Part shown: positions 1 through 48,513 of the stretch, piece by piece | Layout of the letters: every line of letters begins with the position of its first letter | Numbering within the stretch: the first letter of the stretch is position 1 | Source of the DNA: a virus | Lineage: Duplodnaviria > Caudoviricetes | IMG/VR virus record: IMGVR_UViG_3300031992_000039 | Coordinates: 47,328 to 111,327 of that record | Strand: one strand, 5' to 3' | Length of the DNA: 64,000 bases | Notes under the pieces: model-generated | What the model saw: only the letters and a program-made list of their open reading frames with translations | Databases searched by the model: none | Told to the model about the DNA's origin: nothing | Program-made: the position numbers and the translations under genes

Positions 1-520
1 TCCATGAAAAACAGCGGTAACCGCCAATAAGTGTAACCCGCTGCTGATCCGGTCATCACCCCACACCAGTACACTGGGATGCATCTTCTAGATCTTTTCG
101 CTCTTACTCTCGCTCGTCAATTGCGATGCGGGAAGCGACGGTTGTATGCGAATGAAGTTAGTTAATTTCTAGCGGCCGCTGATATCTTCCTTTCATGCCG
201 CATTTAGACAGCAGCTACCTGTCCCCAGCTAATGGCTCGTTTCGTTACAATGACCAGGCTCCGAGCCATTTCCCACCTGTAACTTCATTCGCGTGCGGGT
301 CTGGTTTTAGCACCCCGCATGATCGGCCTCAGCAAATTCCTACCGACTTTCCTGCCTAATTAGCAGGTCTAGTTGCACTTAATAGTCTACCGGAAGTTGA
401 TCGAGTTCCCGGAGGTGGCGGACTCACCTTTGCGTGGGAGTTTGTGTCTATATAGGCACTTGGGCGGTTTACTCGAACACAAGTTACTTGCAAACTGTGT
501 TCTAAGATTGCTCCCACAAA
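1..520 (-). ncRNA. candidate large, highly structured ncRNA (GOLLD/ROOL-like class or novel), probably truncated by the window edge
   Basis: No credible ORF; visibly GC-richer than flanks; nested inverted repeats 148-160/280-292 (13 bp perfect), 231-239/262-270 (9 bp), 434-440/511-517, 475-481/496-502, 294-299/314-319, 351-355/363-367, 413-417/425-429, 12-17/38-43; begins 3 nt after the CCA of a minus-strand tRNA. Confidence 0.7.
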
Positions 521-614
521 TGGCGGAAGTGGCAGGGTTCGAACCTGCAAAGTGGTGACGTCAAACCACAGGGATTTAGAATCCCCCGCCTTTAACCTAT
601 TTGGCTACACTTCC
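521..614 (-). tRNA. tRNA with CUA anticodon (amber suppressor), type II Ser-like body
   Basis: GGAAGTG-TA-GCC AAATAGGTTAAA GGC-G-GGGGA TT CTA AA TCCCT-GTGGT TTGACGTC ACCAC TTT-GCAGG TTCGAAC CCTGC-CACTTCC-G-CCA; anticodon at 579-577; long variable arm, G73, encoded CCA. Confidence 0.9.
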
Positions 615-652
615 ATAACAGCCTTGGTCTTTGTTGGTCGAGGCGGTAAGAT

Positions 653-728
653 TGGTGCGCCCTCCGGGGCTCGAACCCGGGGCACGCGGATTAAAAGTCC
701 GCTGCTCTACCACCTGAGCTAAGGGCGC
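653..728 (-). tRNA. tRNA-Lys(UUU)
   Basis: GCGCCCT acceptor stem, GCTC/GAGC D stem, GCGGA CT TTT AA TCCGC anticodon arm, TTCGA T loop, ACCA end. Confidence 0.95.
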
Positions 729-737
729 ATATAAATC

Positions 738-926
738 TTAATACTTCGCCGTCCTATGAAGCAGCAAAATAATAAGAGGAACGAATATAAGTAAGATTTC
801 TCCACCATACAGTGACGGATCAGCCCTGTGCACCATCGCATAGGGTCTCGCGCAGAAAAACAATCCCACACCAAGTGCTGCAGCAGCAAGGTAACTACTC
901 ACCACTTTTAAAAATCTCATATTCAT
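738..926 (-). CDS. small membrane protein, hypothetical
   Basis: 62 aa with two hydrophobic segments; RBS and sigmaA-type promoter upstream. Confidence 0.6.
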   Translation of the reverse strand: MNMRFLKVVSSYLAAAALGVGLFFCARPYAMVHRADPSLYGGEILLIFVPLIILLLHRTAKY

Positions 927-7804: not shown

Positions 7805-8203
7805 CTATCTATCTTTTTGATGTGTTCGCCACACTTCATCATTATGAAATTTTGAAAGAGCAAGGAATTTTTTAGAAGTTATTTCTTTAAAAGAGGATAA
7901 GTTATCTATCTCCCAATATGGGATACAGTATAAAGCAATGTTGTGCGCGAGACAGTATGAAATTTTTTGACGATCGCGCTCCTTTGCTTTTAGGAAATCG
8001 GAGCGTTTTTTATAAAAAAATTTATTGAATTCGTAGTGGTGAGGCCCATTTATCTCTAGACATGTATTGCGCGAAGGGATATAAAAATCATAGCGATATA
8101 AGCCATTTTTTAAATCTCTAAAAGTTTTTTCCTGAACAAAAGATAAGTCCTCCTGACGAAGAATTTTATATATCTTCTGTTCAAAAGAACTCATTTTACT
8201 CAT
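7805..8203 (-). CDS. PD-(D/E)XK (Vsr/DUF559-like) endonuclease
   Basis: SSFEQKI...QEKTF...RYDFYIP...EINGPHHY; ends in TAG. Confidence 0.75.
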   Translation of the reverse strand: MSKMSSFEQKIYKILRQEDLSFVQEKTFRDLKNGLYRYDFYIPSRNTCLEINGPHHYEFNKFFYKKRSDFLKAKERDRQKISYCLAHNIALYCIPYWEIDNLSSFKEITSKKFLALSKFHNDEVWRTHQKDR

Positions 8204-8205
8204 AT

Positions 8206-9312
8206 TTAATTTTCTCCAAAAATCCTGTACCAATCAGTGTCTCGTGCAGTCAAATCTGGACGCCAATTTTTAAATTTCGGATGGCGAATACCCTTTGTTT
8301 CTCCAAAAACTTGCATTCCGGTTATCTCAGCCACTCTTCCCTTATAATCCCTCCAATTAGAAAGGACTTCTTCTGTAAGTCCACTTAATGAGCCAATCAC
8401 AACAAGTTTATCATCCTTTTTCGCACCTATAACCAAACTTCCAGCCCAATCATTCCAATAAGCCTTAGTAACTGGTTCGATAGACATACCATCACTATAT
8501 TCTTTATAGAGTTCTCCTTCTAACTTTTCACCTGTTCGTATATTTTCCCAATACTTCCAAGTTAGGATCTCTTTTCCTCCATATAAGCGTGTAGGTGGAT
8601 TCGCATCAAGTATAACTACATCAAGAGTCTCTTGAAGCTCTTTTTTAATTTTTATACTGACTTTGGCCGGAGTTCTTTTTTGGTATACAATAGCATCCTT
8701 TCTCATTATCACTACCCCTTCCTTACCTTCAGATAGATAAGTTTGAATATTTTCCCAAAGTTCTTCACCCTGATAATATTCGGCATATTGTATATAACTA
8801 GAACCATATTTTTTACTTATTTCTTTTAGAATGTGTACCCTATCCTTAAATTTTGTATAAAGATAATTTTCTCCACTATATGCCATTACATCAAAAATAT
8901 AAAAGTTTAATGGAGTCTTTTCTTGACGAAGGATAGCTTTATCTTTTAGACATCCTAAAATACTCGTAACTTTATTACTACCCTCATTATTTGGTAAATA
9001 ACACTCACTTAACAAACAAGTGCCATTGGGCAGATCTTTTAACCAATCTGTTAATTGCGGAACCCATTCAATTTTATTGACCACTTCCCCGTGTACATTT
9101 CGTGATCTAGCTATCATGAAACAATTACCATCTTCATCTTTAATAATTCTTTGATAATAACCGTCTACTTTAAGTGCACCAATATAGTCTAGGCTAAAAA
9201 TTGCATTTTTAACTATTTCATGCCTTTGTTGCTGTGAGGTAGATGTCGTAAATGACCAATATTTCATTGGTTCTATATTTATCCAATCAATATTATTTAT
9301 ATATCCTTTCAT
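8206..9312 (-). CDS. ATP-dependent DNA ligase
   Basis: KVDG motif I, FDVM, EGVVIM, KIK, RHPKF...RPD. Confidence 0.88.
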   Translation of the reverse strand: MKGYINNIDWINIEPMKYWSFTTSTSQQQRHEIVKNAIFSLDYIGALKVDGYYQRIIKDEDGNCFMIARSRNVHGEVVNKIEWVPQLTDWLKDLPNGTCLLSECYLPNNEGSNKVTSILGCLKDKAILRQEKTPLNFYIFDVMAYSGENYLYTKFKDRVHILKEISKKYGSSYIQYAEYYQGEELWENIQTYLSEGKEGVVIMRKDAIVYQKRTPAKVSIKIKKELQETLDVVILDANPPTRLYGGKEILTWKYWENIRTGEKLEGELYKEYSDGMSIEPVTKAYWNDWAGSLVIGAKKDDKLVVIGSLSGLTEEVLSNWRDYKGRVAEITGMQVFGETKGIRHPKFKNWRPDLTARDTDWYRIFGEN

Positions 9313-43605: not shown

Positions 43606-43880
43606 TCAGTCACCCCCGTTATGATGTCGAGGAGTTCCTCTGCGGTAGGTTCGTCAGGTATAGGTTCAAATCCCCATTCCTGCACTATCTCGCCTGACTG
43701 CTCCTCAAAATGCGCCACGGCATAGTAGCCTTCGGGTGCTTCGGGTTCGGGCGTGTAAATCACGGGCAGATATCCCGCCGCTTCATACTGTACGTCCGTT
43801 GGGTTAAAAACCACGCATCCGTCGATGGTAAGACGGCGAGGAGCGAGGAAGAGATTGTTGTTTATAAGTTTGCCGTACAT
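43602..43880 (-). CDS. tail fibre accessory protein (paralog of 45957-46349 N-terminus)
   Basis: MYGKLINN...VFNP...AGY.PV...I.Q.W. Confidence 0.6.
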   Translation of the reverse strand: MYGKLINNNLFLAPRRLTIDGCVVFNPTDVQYEAAGYLPVIYTPEPEAPEGYYAVAHFEEQSGEIVQEWGFEPIPDEPTAEELLDIITGVTE

Positions 43881-43889
43881 ATAACCTCC

Positions 43890-44366
43890 TTACAGTGACT
43901 TTAATCCATAGACCTTCACGGTGTAGTTCCCCGCTCGGCAGAGAGGGCAGGCTGTCGCATGGCATCTGCGTTCTATAACCACATTCGGCTTATTCGTAGA
44001 TATACGGACACCGTATGCTTCCGCAGTTTGCCCGCTACTGCTCGTTAAATCTGCAAAGGACACCGTGGATGTTCCTCTTTGCATAATACTTATGCCGCTA
44101 TTCAGACTTGCGTTAGAGTTGTACCGCCCCCAACTGTTAAATGTTGCTCCCCAATCATTTGCACCAACAACAGGCGTGTCGCAAGTTATAATCGCAATAC
44201 CCCACGCATAGTCGGTATTGCTGATATTGATGCCCGTATCGATTGTCTCTACGGTTGTGTCGGTATAATCTCCAAGAGCGATAGTTGCCTCGCCTATCAA
44301 ATCAAACATATCCAAACCTCCTCCTATAGCCGTCATCAAAGCTCTGCGCCTATCATTCAATTTCAT
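43890..44366 (-). CDS. putative receptor-binding accessory protein
   Basis: RRRALM N-terminus; ATGA-coupled to the fibre gene. Confidence 0.55.
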   Translation of the reverse strand: MKLNDRRRALMTAIGGGLDMFDLIGEATIALGDYTDTTVETIDTGINISNTDYAWGIAIITCDTPVVGANDWGATFNSWGRYNSNASLNSGISIMQRGTSTVSFADLTSSSGQTAEAYGVRISTNKPNVVIERRCHATACPLCRAGNYTVKVYGLKSL

Positions 44367-45739
44367 CTGCTCACCGCCCAACTCTGCGCTACGGCATACC
44401 CGTCACGAACGGATACCTCGTAACGCTTATTCGCTTCGATGGTCAGTGTGTCGGGAAACACAACGCCAGAAGGGAATGTTACGGTCGGAGCGGTCGAGCC
44501 TGTGGTAAAAATAATCACATACTCCCTCGCGCCCGTTGCCTGTGTGAGCGTAAGCGAGGTCAGCGCACCCGTGAAGGTGTAGATGGTGTTATCAGCGCAC
44601 TCCTGCGTGACCGCTCCCGCATCCGAAACCGTGACCTCTGTCTGCGCCAGATTGGTCTCCGTTATCGTACCGGTGTACCTAGTTCCATAGTTCATTGTGA
44701 TTTGGTAAAGTATACCATCTTTTATACAGTGTAAATCAAGCTGACCAGTAGTACCTGAGCCTTGAGAATCAATCTCAAACACCCTACCATCTGGCTCAAA
44801 TCCATTGTTTCCATCGGAAACAACTGTGCCGAAAAGGACCTTCCGATTCGATACGACCATGCCGCGAATCCACTCTGGGCCTAGATCACCATCTGGTATC
44901 ATAACCGTGTTTTGATTCGATAATACTATAGGGATAGCCACAGCTTCGGTACTGTTCAAGAGGGTCTCGAAAGCCAAAGTATCGGTGAGACCTAAATATG
45001 TATCATCGAGGTCAACATAGCCCGTCCGTCCATTGACACTCTTCACAGGAGCCTCGTGGTCTATACTCAACACATGATAGTATGTCGAGTAGATGAATGT
45101 GACGGTGTCGTCCGCTTTGATAACTCCATTGGTGATAGGCAAGCCGCGATAGTAGATAGCTTTCGCGCCAGTGGACGATATGTTCAGCGTGGCACCGGCT
45201 GGAACATCCCTATTGAACTTAATAGCGACAATGCCGCCCTCGCTAAGCTCATACTTTATTATAGTCGCCTCCGATGCGGCGTACGTGTCACACGTCGCAT
45301 AGCCAAAACCGAGCTCGGCTGGCGTATTTTTTAGGTCAATTACTTGAATAGAGGCGGCATTGTTGGCGACTATATGATACAGCACATACAGTTTGGCATG
45401 GTTAGTAGAATAACCATGCGCACTCCATATCAAGATCGCACCTCCAGACAGCACAGAGCTCAGATGAGCAATAGTATATCCAGAGTCAACATCAACTAAA
45501 GCGGCTTCGACTGATTTTCCAGATTGCATTGCTGTAAAGATTTCATTAGCTGTCTTGTTGCAAGTGCAAGTATTCGTATCCAGATTAACAGTATATACTA
45601 CTCGATAAATATCAAAGTCAGCTGCGGTCAGCGTCACGTTGCCCGTTTTACCATTGACAGAATTGACAGAGCCTCCTCCTCCTCCGCCTCCCTTTTTTAA
45701 AGCGGCCAAGGCCAAAATTTTAGCTAATCCTTCTTCCAT
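44363..45739 (-). CDS. tail fibre-like modular protein
   Basis: Gly linker, two V.SVNG.TG.V.L repeats, C-terminal module shared with 46888-48513. Confidence 0.65.
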   Translation of the reverse strand: MEEGLAKILALAALKKGGGGGGGSVNSVNGKTGNVTLTAADFDIYRVVYTVNLDTNTCTCNKTANEIFTAMQSGKSVEAALVDVDSGYTIAHLSSVLSGGAILIWSAHGYSTNHAKLYVLYHIVANNAASIQVIDLKNTPAELGFGYATCDTYAASEATIIKYELSEGGIVAIKFNRDVPAGATLNISSTGAKAIYYRGLPITNGVIKADDTVTFIYSTYYHVLSIDHEAPVKSVNGRTGYVDLDDTYLGLTDTLAFETLLNSTEAVAIPIVLSNQNTVMIPDGDLGPEWIRGMVVSNRKVLFGTVVSDGNNGFEPDGRVFEIDSQGSGTTGQLDLHCIKDGILYQITMNYGTRYTGTITETNLAQTEVTVSDAGAVTQECADNTIYTFTGALTSLTLTQATGAREYVIIFTTGSTAPTVTFPSGVVFPDTLTIEANKRYEVSVRDGYAVAQSWAVSR

Positions 45740-45945
45740 TAAGACCACTCCCAAGAACCATCAGATTTTAAGACGCCAATTTCAAGTTTAGCCGTATAGA
45801 CTAAACTCCCCATAGTGAGCTCATCTATACCCAGCTCTTCCGCCAAATCAACGCTAGAACTAGGAACCTCATCCTTTGTATCTGAGTACAGGACATAAAT
45901 TTTTCTGTCTACCGTTTGGCTATCAATACTTATAATTTTTATCAT
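45739..45945 (-). CDS. hypothetical protein
   Basis: 68 aa, TAATG-coupled. Confidence 0.6.
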   Translation of the reverse strand: MIKIISIDSQTVDRKIYVLYSDTKDEVPSSSVDLAEELGIDELTMGSLVYTAKLEIGVLKSDGSWEWS

Positions 45946-45956
45946 TTAATCCTCCA

Positions 45957-46349
45957 TCATACCTCTTCAAAATAATCCCTCCAATCGATTCCTGTAATAG
46001 GCCGCTTATTCCAAGCAGCAGAATGGGCGACCTTTACGCGAAAAATACGCCCTTCGACCACACATTCATCCCCTACATCAAAACGCTTTCCTTGCCAAAC
46101 ATCCCAAGTCGATCGACCGGAATTTTGAAGTAACGGCTTTATTATCCATTTTTGAGTAATTGATGTATCATTTTCCTCCCAATAGGGTTCTGCGCAATAC
46201 CCATCCTCTATATTTACTGATTCTATATATACGGGCTTATATCCTGCTTCTTCAAGTAATTCCTCACATGGATTAAATACTGCTCGTCCCCCTACTCTTA
46301 TCACCTTTTTAGCAACTTCTAGCCTTCCATTTATTATCTTTCCATACAT
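45957..46349 (-). CDS. tail fibre accessory protein with C-terminal carbohydrate-binding-like module
   Basis: MYGKIING...VFNP...AGYKPV; W..G..F.VGD...H...W..P. Confidence 0.6.
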   Translation of the reverse strand: MYGKIINGRLEVAKKVIRVGGRAVFNPCEELLEEAGYKPVYIESVNIEDGYCAEPYWEENDTSITQKWIIKPLLQNSGRSTWDVWQGKRFDVGDECVVEGRIFRVKVAHSAAWNKRPITGIDWRDYFEEV

Positions 46350-46897
46350 TATTCCTTTTCTCCCAAATCATATACATTAAATCTTTTTATTCTACAAGAA
46401 CCACCGCTCGGAGAATTCAGAAATATCTTATATACAAAATAATAATTATCCAACCCTGTGCTTGTACTACCACCAGAGTAAGCGTCGTAATCACTTATAA
46501 AGGTATCTGAAATATGTAAATTAAAGTTATTGGATTCATCAGAACTCAAATCCCTATATTTAACTCTTATACCATAACTTGGGTCAGGATAACTATAAAT
46601 ACCCAAAGAAATGATCAACTTTGCATTGTTCGCCGCCGTGTCTATCCATTCTAAATCTGCGTCAACTTTCAACTTATGACCTTTTAATTCCCCAAAGGTA
46701 CTAAATTCGGTTGGGTCTCCCGTAGCTTGAGCAAATAAGAACCACGTCGCACTTCCACTAGAAGTAAATAAAAGCCCATCGCTATCTTTAGTAATCGTCC
46801 CCGTATTGTACGAATAGGTTAAATTCACACCATCGAATAACTTCTTTCCAGAGAAACTCGCGCCCACTAATGCTCTATGAGTATATTCTAATCCCAT
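46349..46897 (-). CDS. putative receptor-binding accessory protein
   Basis: HRALV N-terminus; same position as 43890-44366 in the parallel cassette. Confidence 0.55.
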   Translation of the reverse strand: MGLEYTHRALVGASFSGKKLFDGVNLTYSYNTGTITKDSDGLLFTSSGSATWFLFAQATGDPTEFSTFGELKGHKLKVDADLEWIDTAANNAKLIISLGIYSYPDPSYGIRVKYRDLSSDESNNFNLHISDTFISDYDAYSGGSTSTGLDNYYFVYKIFLNSPSGGSCRIKRFNVYDLGEKE

Positions 46898-48513
46898 GGA
46901 TTAAACTCCATATAACTCGCATAAGCAAGATAGTTATAGGTTATCCCATTAATTTTAAAAGGCGGGATTTTACTAATACTAACTTCTATTACAGTATTAG
47001 TTTGGGTTAAGGCTTCCACAGCGCCGGGCGCATAGCCGATATTAGTGGGAAGAGAGATTTGAACGGGCTGATCTTCTACTACAATAAAGAAATGATAAAT
47101 GGGCTCTTCTTCTTCTTCTTGGCTGTCTTCATTATAATTACCTCGTAAGGTAATTGATAAACTATTTGGACCATAAAACCAATAGGTTTTGAATGGTTCA
47201 AGCGATTGAGTGGCAGGTCTTTTATTAATTTTGGTGCTGGTGGCCGCGAGTGTAGACTCCGCCATACCAGACAACACGAAGGCTCCCGTCCAAGAGCCAT
47301 CCCTAAGAGAGGTGGTATCAATACTCGCAACCGTGGCGCCAGAATTATTAATTACTGTCATTAAAGGTGCTATATCATAAAAGCCCTTCGCGCCACCAAA
47401 ATTATAAAATTGATTTAAATAACCAAATATCTTACCATTATAAAGAATCCTCGCACGCATTGTTTGTTCTACTGCAATGGCTCGTTCGTACTCATCATAA
47501 TCGACTATTGCAACTGGGATAATAGTACTAGTAGGTTCTTCAGTTATATTAAAATCTATAGTATGGATTTCTTCTGTGCCAGCCCCGATATTTTTTCTTG
47601 CTAAAGCACGTTCCTCTTCCGTAAGCGTCTGAAGTTGGTCATAAACTACTGGTTTTGCATACTCACCTAAAGCATAACTATTTAGAGAGATATTGATAAA
47701 AGTGTTTTCTCTTTCATTTAAATCAAAGGAAAAAACAATTAAACATCCAATATTATCTCCCCCATCAGGAGGTATAACTTCCCAAAGCTTACATTTCTCA
47801 TCCTCTTTTTTAAAATTATGAAGAATATAGTTTTGAGAATTATAATAAATTGAACAATAAATTGTCTTTTTAAGATTCAACGCTTCGATAAAATCTTCAT
47901 AAGGACTGATTACTGAAAAACTGCCTCTACGAGAGGTTTCGACGATATAAACTTCTTCTGTTCCTGCGCCGATATTCTCCCTTGCCTGCGCTTTTTGCTC
48001 ATCAGTAAGTGATTGAGTTAAGTATAAAACCGCACCTTCTAAATCAGCAGAAATTTCATTATCTTCCGATATAGAAATATGTTCTCCGACGGTTAATTTA
48101 TCTTGCTTCTCATCAAGCCCATCAATAAAAGTGTCGTACCAAGTAGAAGTAGGTTCAGAATATATTCCCCCAGTCAATGGCGCTTCCGTTACCTCAAGAG
48201 TCTCCTCATTCGTAACGAGCATGTCTCCCGCGAATATTCCCATATAGAACTTCCTTCTTCGACTCATCATTTCCCATGGAATTTGTGCCATATTATCTAC
48301 AATAGGGACTATAATAGCCTGAGTTCGATTTGGAGAATATGGCTTAGTAGAGAAAGAGGCAGACAAATAATCTAATCCATCAAAACTATCATCTAAAAAA
48401 TTAAAAGTTGCATACCAATAATTTTTGCTGCCCGCGCGAAGTGGCCTTTTATTAGTAGCAGTAATTGTTTGGGTTGCCCCGTTTACATCAAAGTTTAAAT
48501 AAAATTTTGGCAT
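46888..48513 (-). CDS. baseplate-upper (BppU-like) / tail fibre protein
   Basis: N-terminal GS.NY..A.F...IPWE...G; KQDKL; two Q.LT.E....AR.NIGAGTEE repeats; ends in TAG. Confidence 0.65.
   Translation of the reverse strand: MPKFYLNFDVNGATQTITATNKRPLRAGSKNYWYATFNFLDDSFDGLDYLSASFSTKPYSPNRTQAIIVPIVDNMAQIPWEMMSRRRKFYMGIFAGDMLVTNEETLEVTEAPLTGGIYSEPTSTWYDTFIDGLDEKQDKLTVGEHISISEDNEISADLEGAVLYLTQSLTDEQKAQARENIGAGTEEVYIVETSRRGSFSVISPYEDFIEALNLKKTIYCSIYYNSQNYILHNFKKEDEKCKLWEVIPPDGGDNIGCLIVFSFDLNERENTFINISLNSYALGEYAKPVVYDQLQTLTEEERALARKNIGAGTEEIHTIDFNITEEPTSTIIPVAIVDYDEYERAIAVEQTMRARILYNGKIFGYLNQFYNFGGAKGFYDIAPLMTVINNSGATVASIDTTSLRDGSWTGAFVLSGMAESTLAATSTKINKRPATQSLEPFKTYWFYGPNSLSITLRGNYNEDSQEEEEEPIYHFFIVVEDQPVQISLPTNIGYAPGAVEALTQTNTVIEVSISKIPPFKINGITYNYLAYASYMEFNPWD

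Follow-up and report, generated by a model that had tools for sequence, protein, structure and literature searches.

The question raised by this locus is what, if anything, is encoded by a G+C-rich stretch without a credible open reading frame, lying directly behind an amber-suppressor tRNA in the genome of a rumen phage. The tRNA islands of phages are home to the giant RNAs ROOL and GOLLD, for which cage-like structures have been solved, while their function is still unknown. Both lie near the tRNA islands of phages (PMC12286853). ROOL, at about 0.5-0.6 kb, is a large non-coding RNA located in these islands (PMC12286853, PMC5737381), and GOLLD, likewise large and structured, occurs in phages and prophages, frequently next to tRNAs or surrounding them (PMC12286853). 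The stretch analyzed here (referred to as the window; 64,000 nt) extends from position 47328 to the last position, 111327, of a virus record that has direct terminal repeats, and the gene content of the phage includes topoisomerase II, a split DNA polymerase, RecJ, and an anaerobic ribonucleotide reductase. The original prediction held that the beginning of the window contains a large non-coding RNA that is either a member of the GOLLD/ROOL families or a new class.

The DNA was extended to the left of the window (contig L002, for which the window coordinate is the L002 coordinate minus 10000). The ORF-free stretch had been described as at least 520 nt long; its lack of ORFs stands, but it is not open-ended, as tRNA-Ser(UGA) starts at window position 3. 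The element, named el517, is thus exactly 517 nt long, and is bounded by tRNA-Sup(CUA) and tRNA-Ser(UGA), as determined with ARAGORN and Rfam on the left extension. It is held in a minus-strand island of ten tRNAs (ARAGORN; genome positions 43734-48055). The coordinates of its features and of its surroundings are collected in the table below.

Features of el517 and of its surroundings (window coordinates unless stated otherwise)
Feature	Position	Strand	Description or basis
el517, ORF-free element	4-520 (genome 47331-47847)	minus (RNA read 520 to 4)	bounded by tRNAs
5' domain, 84 nt	434-517	minus	closing helix 434-440/511-517, inner hairpin 475-502; pair P 0.98-1.00
Central four-way junction, 145 nt	148-292	minus	closing helix 148-160/280-292; hairpins 231-270, 206-224, 172-201; P 0.97-0.99
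Variable hairpin, 11-nt loop	57-81	minus	cattle-variant comparison and refolding
Terminator-like hairpin, stem 26-12, U5 tract	5-26	minus	consensus scan
tRNA-Sup, CUA anticodon (amber suppressor)	521-614	minus	ARAGORN and Rfam tRNA, 57.1 bits
tRNA-Ser(UGA)	L002 9917-10003 (window 1-3 are its first three bases)	minus	ARAGORN and Rfam tRNA, 38.4 bits
Spacer, ~38 nt, upstream edge of insertion	615-651	minus	blastn and junction read-out against L048
tRNA-Lys(UUU), conserved in relatives	653-728	minus	cassette inserted directly behind
Promoter-like site TTGAAT-17-TATAAT	950-978	minus	consensus scan only
Promoter repeat copies	922-982; -121 to -166; L002 7947-8010; many in L038-L051 and L064-L073		

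The tRNA-Sup(CUA) gene has a long variable arm and an encoded CCA (523-521), which is followed by UUU and, from position 517, by the first helix of the element, in line with the predicted start 3 nt behind the CCA of the amber tRNA. This suppressor tRNA occurs in a phage whose genes read normally with code 11. ORF coverage amounts to 81% with this code and to 87% with TAG recoded, the largest ORFs being unchanged, and genome-wide TAG recoding was dropped since ORF coverage barely shifts. The relatives G006 and G007 also carry CUA tRNAs.

The G+C content of el517 (0.497) is 12 points higher than that of the genome (0.373), so the description of the stretch as richer in G+C was accurate. Its longest ORFs reach 54-64 aa, two of them extending into a tRNA, and none is found in a 15-billion-protein collection or matches Pfam, which also bears out the statement that no credible ORF lies in the first 520 nt. 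A protein-coding gene or pseudogene, possibly with TAG suppressed, could be thought of, as an amber suppressor adjoins the element. Nevertheless, when TAG is read through, the sole long frame crosses two tRNAs and requires four TAG codons, no piece of an ORF is present in protein collections, and the substitutions seen in the natural variants presented below track RNA pairing rather than codon positions. A coding function is, therefore, barely credible.

Identification of the element as a known RNA relied on Rfam 15 (4227 models), applied at gathering thresholds, at E<=10 on window positions 1-800, and at E<=1 on 13 kb. These scans took in ROOL, GOLLD, OLE, raiA, HEARO, 6S, tmRNA, RNase P RNA, and group I and group II introns, and el517 has no match in any of the three settings. 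The ROOL model (RF03087, gathering score of 99.1 bits) gives no match at E<=10, whether run on the window, on L002, or on the complete genome, and GOLLD, including its conserved 3' domain, is likewise without a match in the 4227-model scans (800 nt at E<=10; 13 kb at E<=1). The same is true of tmRNA, RNase P RNA, introns, OLE, raiA, HEARO, and 6S, and ARAGORN also detects no tmRNA. El517 is neither ROOL, nor GOLLD, nor a member of another Rfam family. Three further candidates were discarded along the way: an RNase P-like 'GGAAAGUC' motif spotted by eye (no P4 helix pairing partner, no Rfam match), a Ro60/Y-RNA system (no TROVE protein in the genome), and an intron-bearing tRNA (none found by the intron search of ARAGORN).

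The ROOL model performs well in the phages related to this one, for which loci were gathered via the DNA polymerase (23 IMG/VR loci, with 37-81% identity). It scores 258-359 bits in seven related records. Membership of ROOL or GOLLD, one of the two readings in the original prediction, is not supported. In five of these phages (G006, G007, G008, G009, and G012), ROOL is always in or beside the tRNA island. In the other two records, the syntenic contigs L049 and L050, it scores 319-321 bits and lies between the gene of a 289-aa protein and ClpP, an interval that is the position of the tRNA island of el517 in the studied phage. The element shares with ROOL its size class, its location within a phage tRNA island (here, one of ten tRNAs), this 289-aa gene-ClpP interval, and its rumen origin. 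It differs from ROOL by the lack of a model match, the absence of the conserved ROOL motifs seen in the relatives, a G+C content of 50% versus 36% for the ROOL of related phages, and its occurrence in one lineage, whereas ROOL is widespread. GOLLD, which is also found near tRNAs, is about 800 nt or longer, compared with 517 nt for the element. A very divergent ROOL or GOLLD, or another catalogued RNA (tmRNA, RNase P RNA, intron), would suit the tRNA-island niche (PMC12286853), the presence of ROOL in the same interval of the relatives, and the similar size. However, with 0 of 4227 models matching 800 nt at E<=10, a ROOL model that is silent genome-wide at this same threshold while being so sensitive in the relatives, missing motifs, and a 14-point gap in G+C content being set against it, this identity is very improbable. 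That seven related records have ROOL in this interval, and that a neighboring 815-nt spacer RNA, described further on, is conserved, indicates that large RNAs are normal cargo of these islands.

The secondary structure of el517 was predicted by partition function. The three helices named in the original prediction are all real and dominate the ensemble, each with a P of 0.98: helix 148-160/280-292 (13 bp), helix 232-239/262-269 (9 bp when 231/270 is counted), and helix 434-440/511-517 (7 bp). Further helices are predicted at 475-480/497-502, 351-356/362-367, 206-211/219-224, and 172-176/197-201, with P of 0.97-1.0 for all helices. A perfect inverted repeat of 13 bp is reached in only 1 of 300 dinucleotide shuffles, and the element contains 34 inverted repeats of at least 6 bp, versus 21.8 +/- 4.6 in shuffles. 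The folding energy is unevenly distributed along the RNA. The MFE z is -2.7 for the 5' domain (RNA positions 1-90) and -3.9 for the central domain (151 nt folded, versus shuffles), while two other segments only reach -0.5 and -0.7, i.e., values of shuffled sequences. Over the whole minus strand, it amounts to -1.6 to -1.9, versus -3.6 to -3.9 for the ROOL RNAs of related phages treated by the same procedure. The idea of a stretch filled with nested helices, thus, holds for the 5' and central domains, which beat shuffles, but is overstated for the approximately one half of the element that folds like shuffled sequence. The plus strand scores better than the minus strand (z of -4.0), because the helices are nearly pure Watson-Crick and the plus-strand shuffle baseline is weaker. 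At the 3' end, a candidate terminator hairpin (26-12 followed by U5) is found 4 nt ahead of tRNA-Ser. The fold is, in part, established: it comprises the 84-nt 5' domain, the 145-nt four-way junction, and a variable hairpin, with less structured linkers between them.

Some of these traits recall tRNAs. A cluster of decayed or non-canonical tRNAs (dead tRNA genes, or tRNA-shaped non-decoding RNAs) would be in keeping with a G+C content equal to that of tRNAs, with an 84-nt 5' domain whose 7-bp closing stem lies 3 nt behind a tRNA, with the central four-way junction, and with the neighboring spacer, which has a 59-nt tRNA body devoid of anticodon arm. Against this, the tRNA model RF00005 detects nothing within genome positions 47331-47847 at E<=10 per genome, and ARAGORN, even with its intron search, returns only the 10 flanking tRNAs and none inside the element. 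In addition, el517 has no T-loop motif, and the spacing of its junction (11 nt from the last hairpin to the closing helix) is not that of a tRNA. Such a cluster is, accordingly, an improbable origin for the element.

Homologues of el517 were sought at several levels. By blastn, there is no match in 50,697 phage records, including GenBank phages, and no homologue in 18 related IMG/VR records, among which a covariance model of the central domain matches only the studied genome (210 bits). Nor is the element present, according to nhmmer and blastn, in the tRNA islands of relatives or in the syntenic contigs fetched via the 289-aa protein, the nucleoside 2-deoxyribosyltransferase (NDT), and ClpP. 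Exact patterns taken from four parts of el517 yielded no homologue in IMG/VR, JGI metagenomes, or GTDB genomes, the single GTDB pattern match being rejected as a 25-nt chance match in a Polaromonas MAG. Anchors placed in the suppressor tRNA and tRNA-Ser did not recover any homologue either; a 17-mer from the anticodon arm only found unrelated suppressor tRNAs, with nothing resembling el517 downstream. Finally, no spurious ORF over homologous DNA was found in protein collections, and the use of the 289-aa neighbor protein as an IMG/VR locus query did not retrieve a homologue. El517 is known only from the studied phage and near-identical strains.

Comparison with the closest syntenic relative (L048, with a 289-aa protein that is 56% identical) informs on the way the element was acquired. 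Nucleotide homology to L048 (blastn) stops at the CCA of tRNA-Lys (653) and is picked up again where a promoter repeat next occurs (window -123), and L048 is contiguous across the insertion point, which indicates a precise insertion of 774 nt, extending to window -122. Its components are, in order, the spacer of 38 nt, the suppressor tRNA as upstream member of the cassette, el517, tRNA-Ser as downstream member (lying, except for three bases, left of the window), and 39 further bases. The 113-kb relative L072, of which ClpP is 81% identical, is without the cassette, its tRNA-Lys being followed by a zinc-ribbon ORF and NDT. Judging from these alignments, el517 entered the lineage as a 774-nt cassette, together with the suppressor tRNA and tRNA-Ser, exactly behind tRNA-Lys.

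The promoter repeat just mentioned is about 60 nt long, contains a sigma-70-like promoter, and heads modules of genes or of RNAs in the tRNA islands of every related phage, besides marking the downstream border of the 774-nt insertion. Its recurrence at module borders suggests that modules are exchanged by recombination between the copies of this repeat. On the upstream side of the cassette, the promoter-like site at 978-950, itself part of a copy of this repeat, precedes a conserved 62-aa membrane-type ORF and then tRNA-Lys, and is likely to be the start of the transcription unit holding el517. Downstream of tRNA-Ser, two minus-strand genes are found (L002 9626-9820 and 9193-9642), coding for a 64-aa ORF with two CxxC pairs and for the 150-aa NDT. 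This gene pair is conserved within the tRNA islands of many related phages.

Transcription of the element was assessed by 31-mer look-up of sequencing runs, followed by alignment of the matching runs over 7 kb. The el517 stretch is present at full share in two sheep-gut DNA runs; it also occurs in two sheep-rumen metatranscriptome runs that come from a single sample, and partly in cattle-gut runs. Two RNA contigs without any difference from the phage cover window positions 62-596 (word depth of 27) and 328-580 (depth of 103), and both bridge the junction between tRNA-Sup and el517, by 60-76 nt. Word depth is 2.5-13 over the flanking genes and 0-9 over the ORF-bearing spacers of the island, all these values coming from assembled contigs of one sample, in which word depth reflects expression poorly and neither the strand nor the ends of the RNA are visible. 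There is, thus, moderate evidence that the el517 RNA exists and is more abundant than the neighboring mRNAs.

Natural variants of el517 in cattle runs provide a different kind of information. One run (X6) contains a 98% variant, and another (X5) a variant of about 93%, with 34 substitutions and two deletions over L002 9921-10426; the latter, rebuilt from a difference table leaving out seven changes, constitutes a small sample. In both runs, contigs cover only parts of the aligned 7 kb. At 148 and 239, a C>U change faces G, and at 233, an A>G change faces U; these three changes and the one at 274 each retain a pair on the minus strand, as G-U or A-U. On the plus strand, the first three would break pairs, and position 274 has no partner in the fold. 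A further change, at 147, creates an additional G-C pair. In the variant, the terminal pair 295/318 does not persist, and some changes break predicted pairs of low confidence. From the element to the variant, the MFE of the central domain is unchanged on the minus strand (-50.5/-50.7), but goes from -53.4 to -41.5 on the plus strand, i.e., 12 kcal/mol worse. The differences of X5 are also clustered, fifteen of them being packed into positions 50-82, with thirteen substitutions or deletions in 59-82. In the refolded variant, the 6-bp stem of hairpin 57-81 is kept via AU>GU, UG>UA, and CG>UA, whereas the sequence of its 11-nt loop is entirely different. The variants point consistently to a minus-strand RNA under structural constraint. 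As the RNA contigs bridge the tRNA-Sup junction and variant pairing favors the minus strand, the view of el517 as a non-coding, structured minus-strand RNA joined to the tRNAs gains support.

The same element could, nevertheless, be a hitch-hiking spacer, i.e., non-functional DNA that came with its two tRNAs from a G+C-richer donor and is transcribed only through the tRNA operon, its helices being at most a 3' trailer or terminator context for the suppressor tRNA. Its arrival by insertion, its restriction to one lineage and absence from every related phage examined, and the shuffle-like behavior of half of its length (whole-length z of -1.9) are all consistent with such an origin, and a recent transfer alone would explain both the high G+C content and the 93-98% identity to the cattle variants. 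What it accounts for less well is that the changes at 148, 233, and 239, located in confident helices, keep pairing on the transcribed strand only, that the stem of hairpin 57-81 is kept while the loop is replaced, that the 13-bp helix is beyond chance (1/300 shuffles), and that el517 exceeds the ORF-bearing spacers of the island several-fold in RNA word depth. A hitch-hiking spacer is the main rival explanation, less likely than a stable RNA but well within reach.

The reading that we favor, with a probability of roughly 0.55, is that el517 encodes a real, stable, and partly structured RNA, produced along with tRNA-Lys and the suppressor tRNA, and released through tRNA processing, termination, or both. 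El517 is probably a lineage-restricted stable RNA, and its release by tRNA processing, which had been proposed from the outset, is plausible. A single transcription unit would run from the promoter-like site at 978-950 through the 62-aa ORF, tRNA-Lys, and tRNA-Sup(CUA) to el517. The 5' end of the resulting minus-strand RNA, of about 0.5 kb, would be generated by the 3'-end processing of the suppressor tRNA, and its 3' end either by the terminator-like hairpin (26-12 and U5) or by RNase P cleavage at tRNA-Ser. Its functional niche may be that of ROOL, GOLLD, and RNAC/RNAD of T4, which are abundant accessory RNAs made with phage tRNAs. It would then most likely act as a free RNA particle during infection, and not as a cis-regulator. 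An unlikely extension of this scheme is that el517 founds a new class of large structured phage RNA, a mobile cassette with a suppressor tRNA and tRNA-Ser, which would replace ROOL in its role or work with the suppressor (e.g., by timing its release or by acting on UAG termination).

RNAC and RNAD of T4 (also known as species 1 and 2) are stable non-decoding RNAs, co-transcribed with tRNAs and excised by the tRNA-processing machinery. They are tRNA-shaped and about 120-140 nt long. Like them, el517 is non-decoding and associated with phage tRNAs, but it is four times longer and not tRNA-like.

The tRNA island contains a second candidate for a large RNA, with a length of about 815 nt (L002 7153-7968, minus strand), in a spacer at L002 7153-8010 (genome 44480-45337; window about -2847 to -1990). 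This G+C-rich, ORF-free spacer lies between tRNA-Thr and tRNA-Leu(UAA), has no Rfam match, and surpasses the rest of the island in RNA word depth (136-159), with an MFE z of -2.5 and a consensus promoter (TTGAAA-17-TATAAT at L002 8002-7974). Homologues that are 86-89% identical exist at L067 3358-4151 and L064 6678-6992, where the NDT proteins are only 64-66% identical, and the alignment of the three sequences contains 16 pairs with compensatory double changes. In the sister phages, the place that it occupies, upstream of the tRNA-Met group, is that of ROOL. Within this spacer, a 59-nt tRNA-like body (L002 7444-7502, minus strand) possesses an acceptor stem, a D arm, and a T arm, but no anticodon arm; it scores 40.5 bits with the Rfam tRNA model, is not called by ARAGORN, and has compensatory changes in the acceptor and T stems in L067. 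The ~815-nt spacer and el517 resemble each other in their island, strand, lack of ORF, G+C richness, lack of an Rfam family, and high RNA depth. They share no sequence similarity, however, and only the former has its own consensus promoter and homologues of this kind. It looks like a second large RNA, better supported than el517.

Other minus-strand spacers of the island are also ORF-free, with 47-51% G+C (L002 8347-8802, 456 nt; 8153-8268, 116 nt; and 8877-8998, 122 nt). The 456-nt spacer has an RNA word depth of 110-149, yet its fold is shuffle-like (z of -1.05). The 122-nt spacer is 94% identical to L064 3815-3936, located there between tRNA-Thr and tRNA-Gly. Outside the clade, an unrelated IMG/VR group of phages, with about 44% G+C, displays a CUA suppressor tRNA followed by a ~870-nt spacer and then tRNA-Trp (L054 9351-10220; also L053, L056, L057, L058, and L062), this spacer having no similarity to el517.

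The clearest new facts are the structure of the cassette and the contrast with the ROOL-bearing sister phages. The ROOL slot behaves as a swap-shop within one clade of rumen phages: the sisters carry ROOL, whereas the studied phage has none and carries instead two unrelated, expressed, G+C-rich RNAs, one of which came as a 774-nt cassette with an amber-suppressor tRNA. If el517 turns out to be only a spacer, it constitutes a warning that G+C-rich, helix-bearing, and well-transcribed spacers of tRNA operons can mimic ornate RNAs. If its RNA is functional, these phages would offer a natural replacement series for probing what such RNAs do, and el517 itself would be a compact RNA (517 nt, with two well-folded domains) for structural work.
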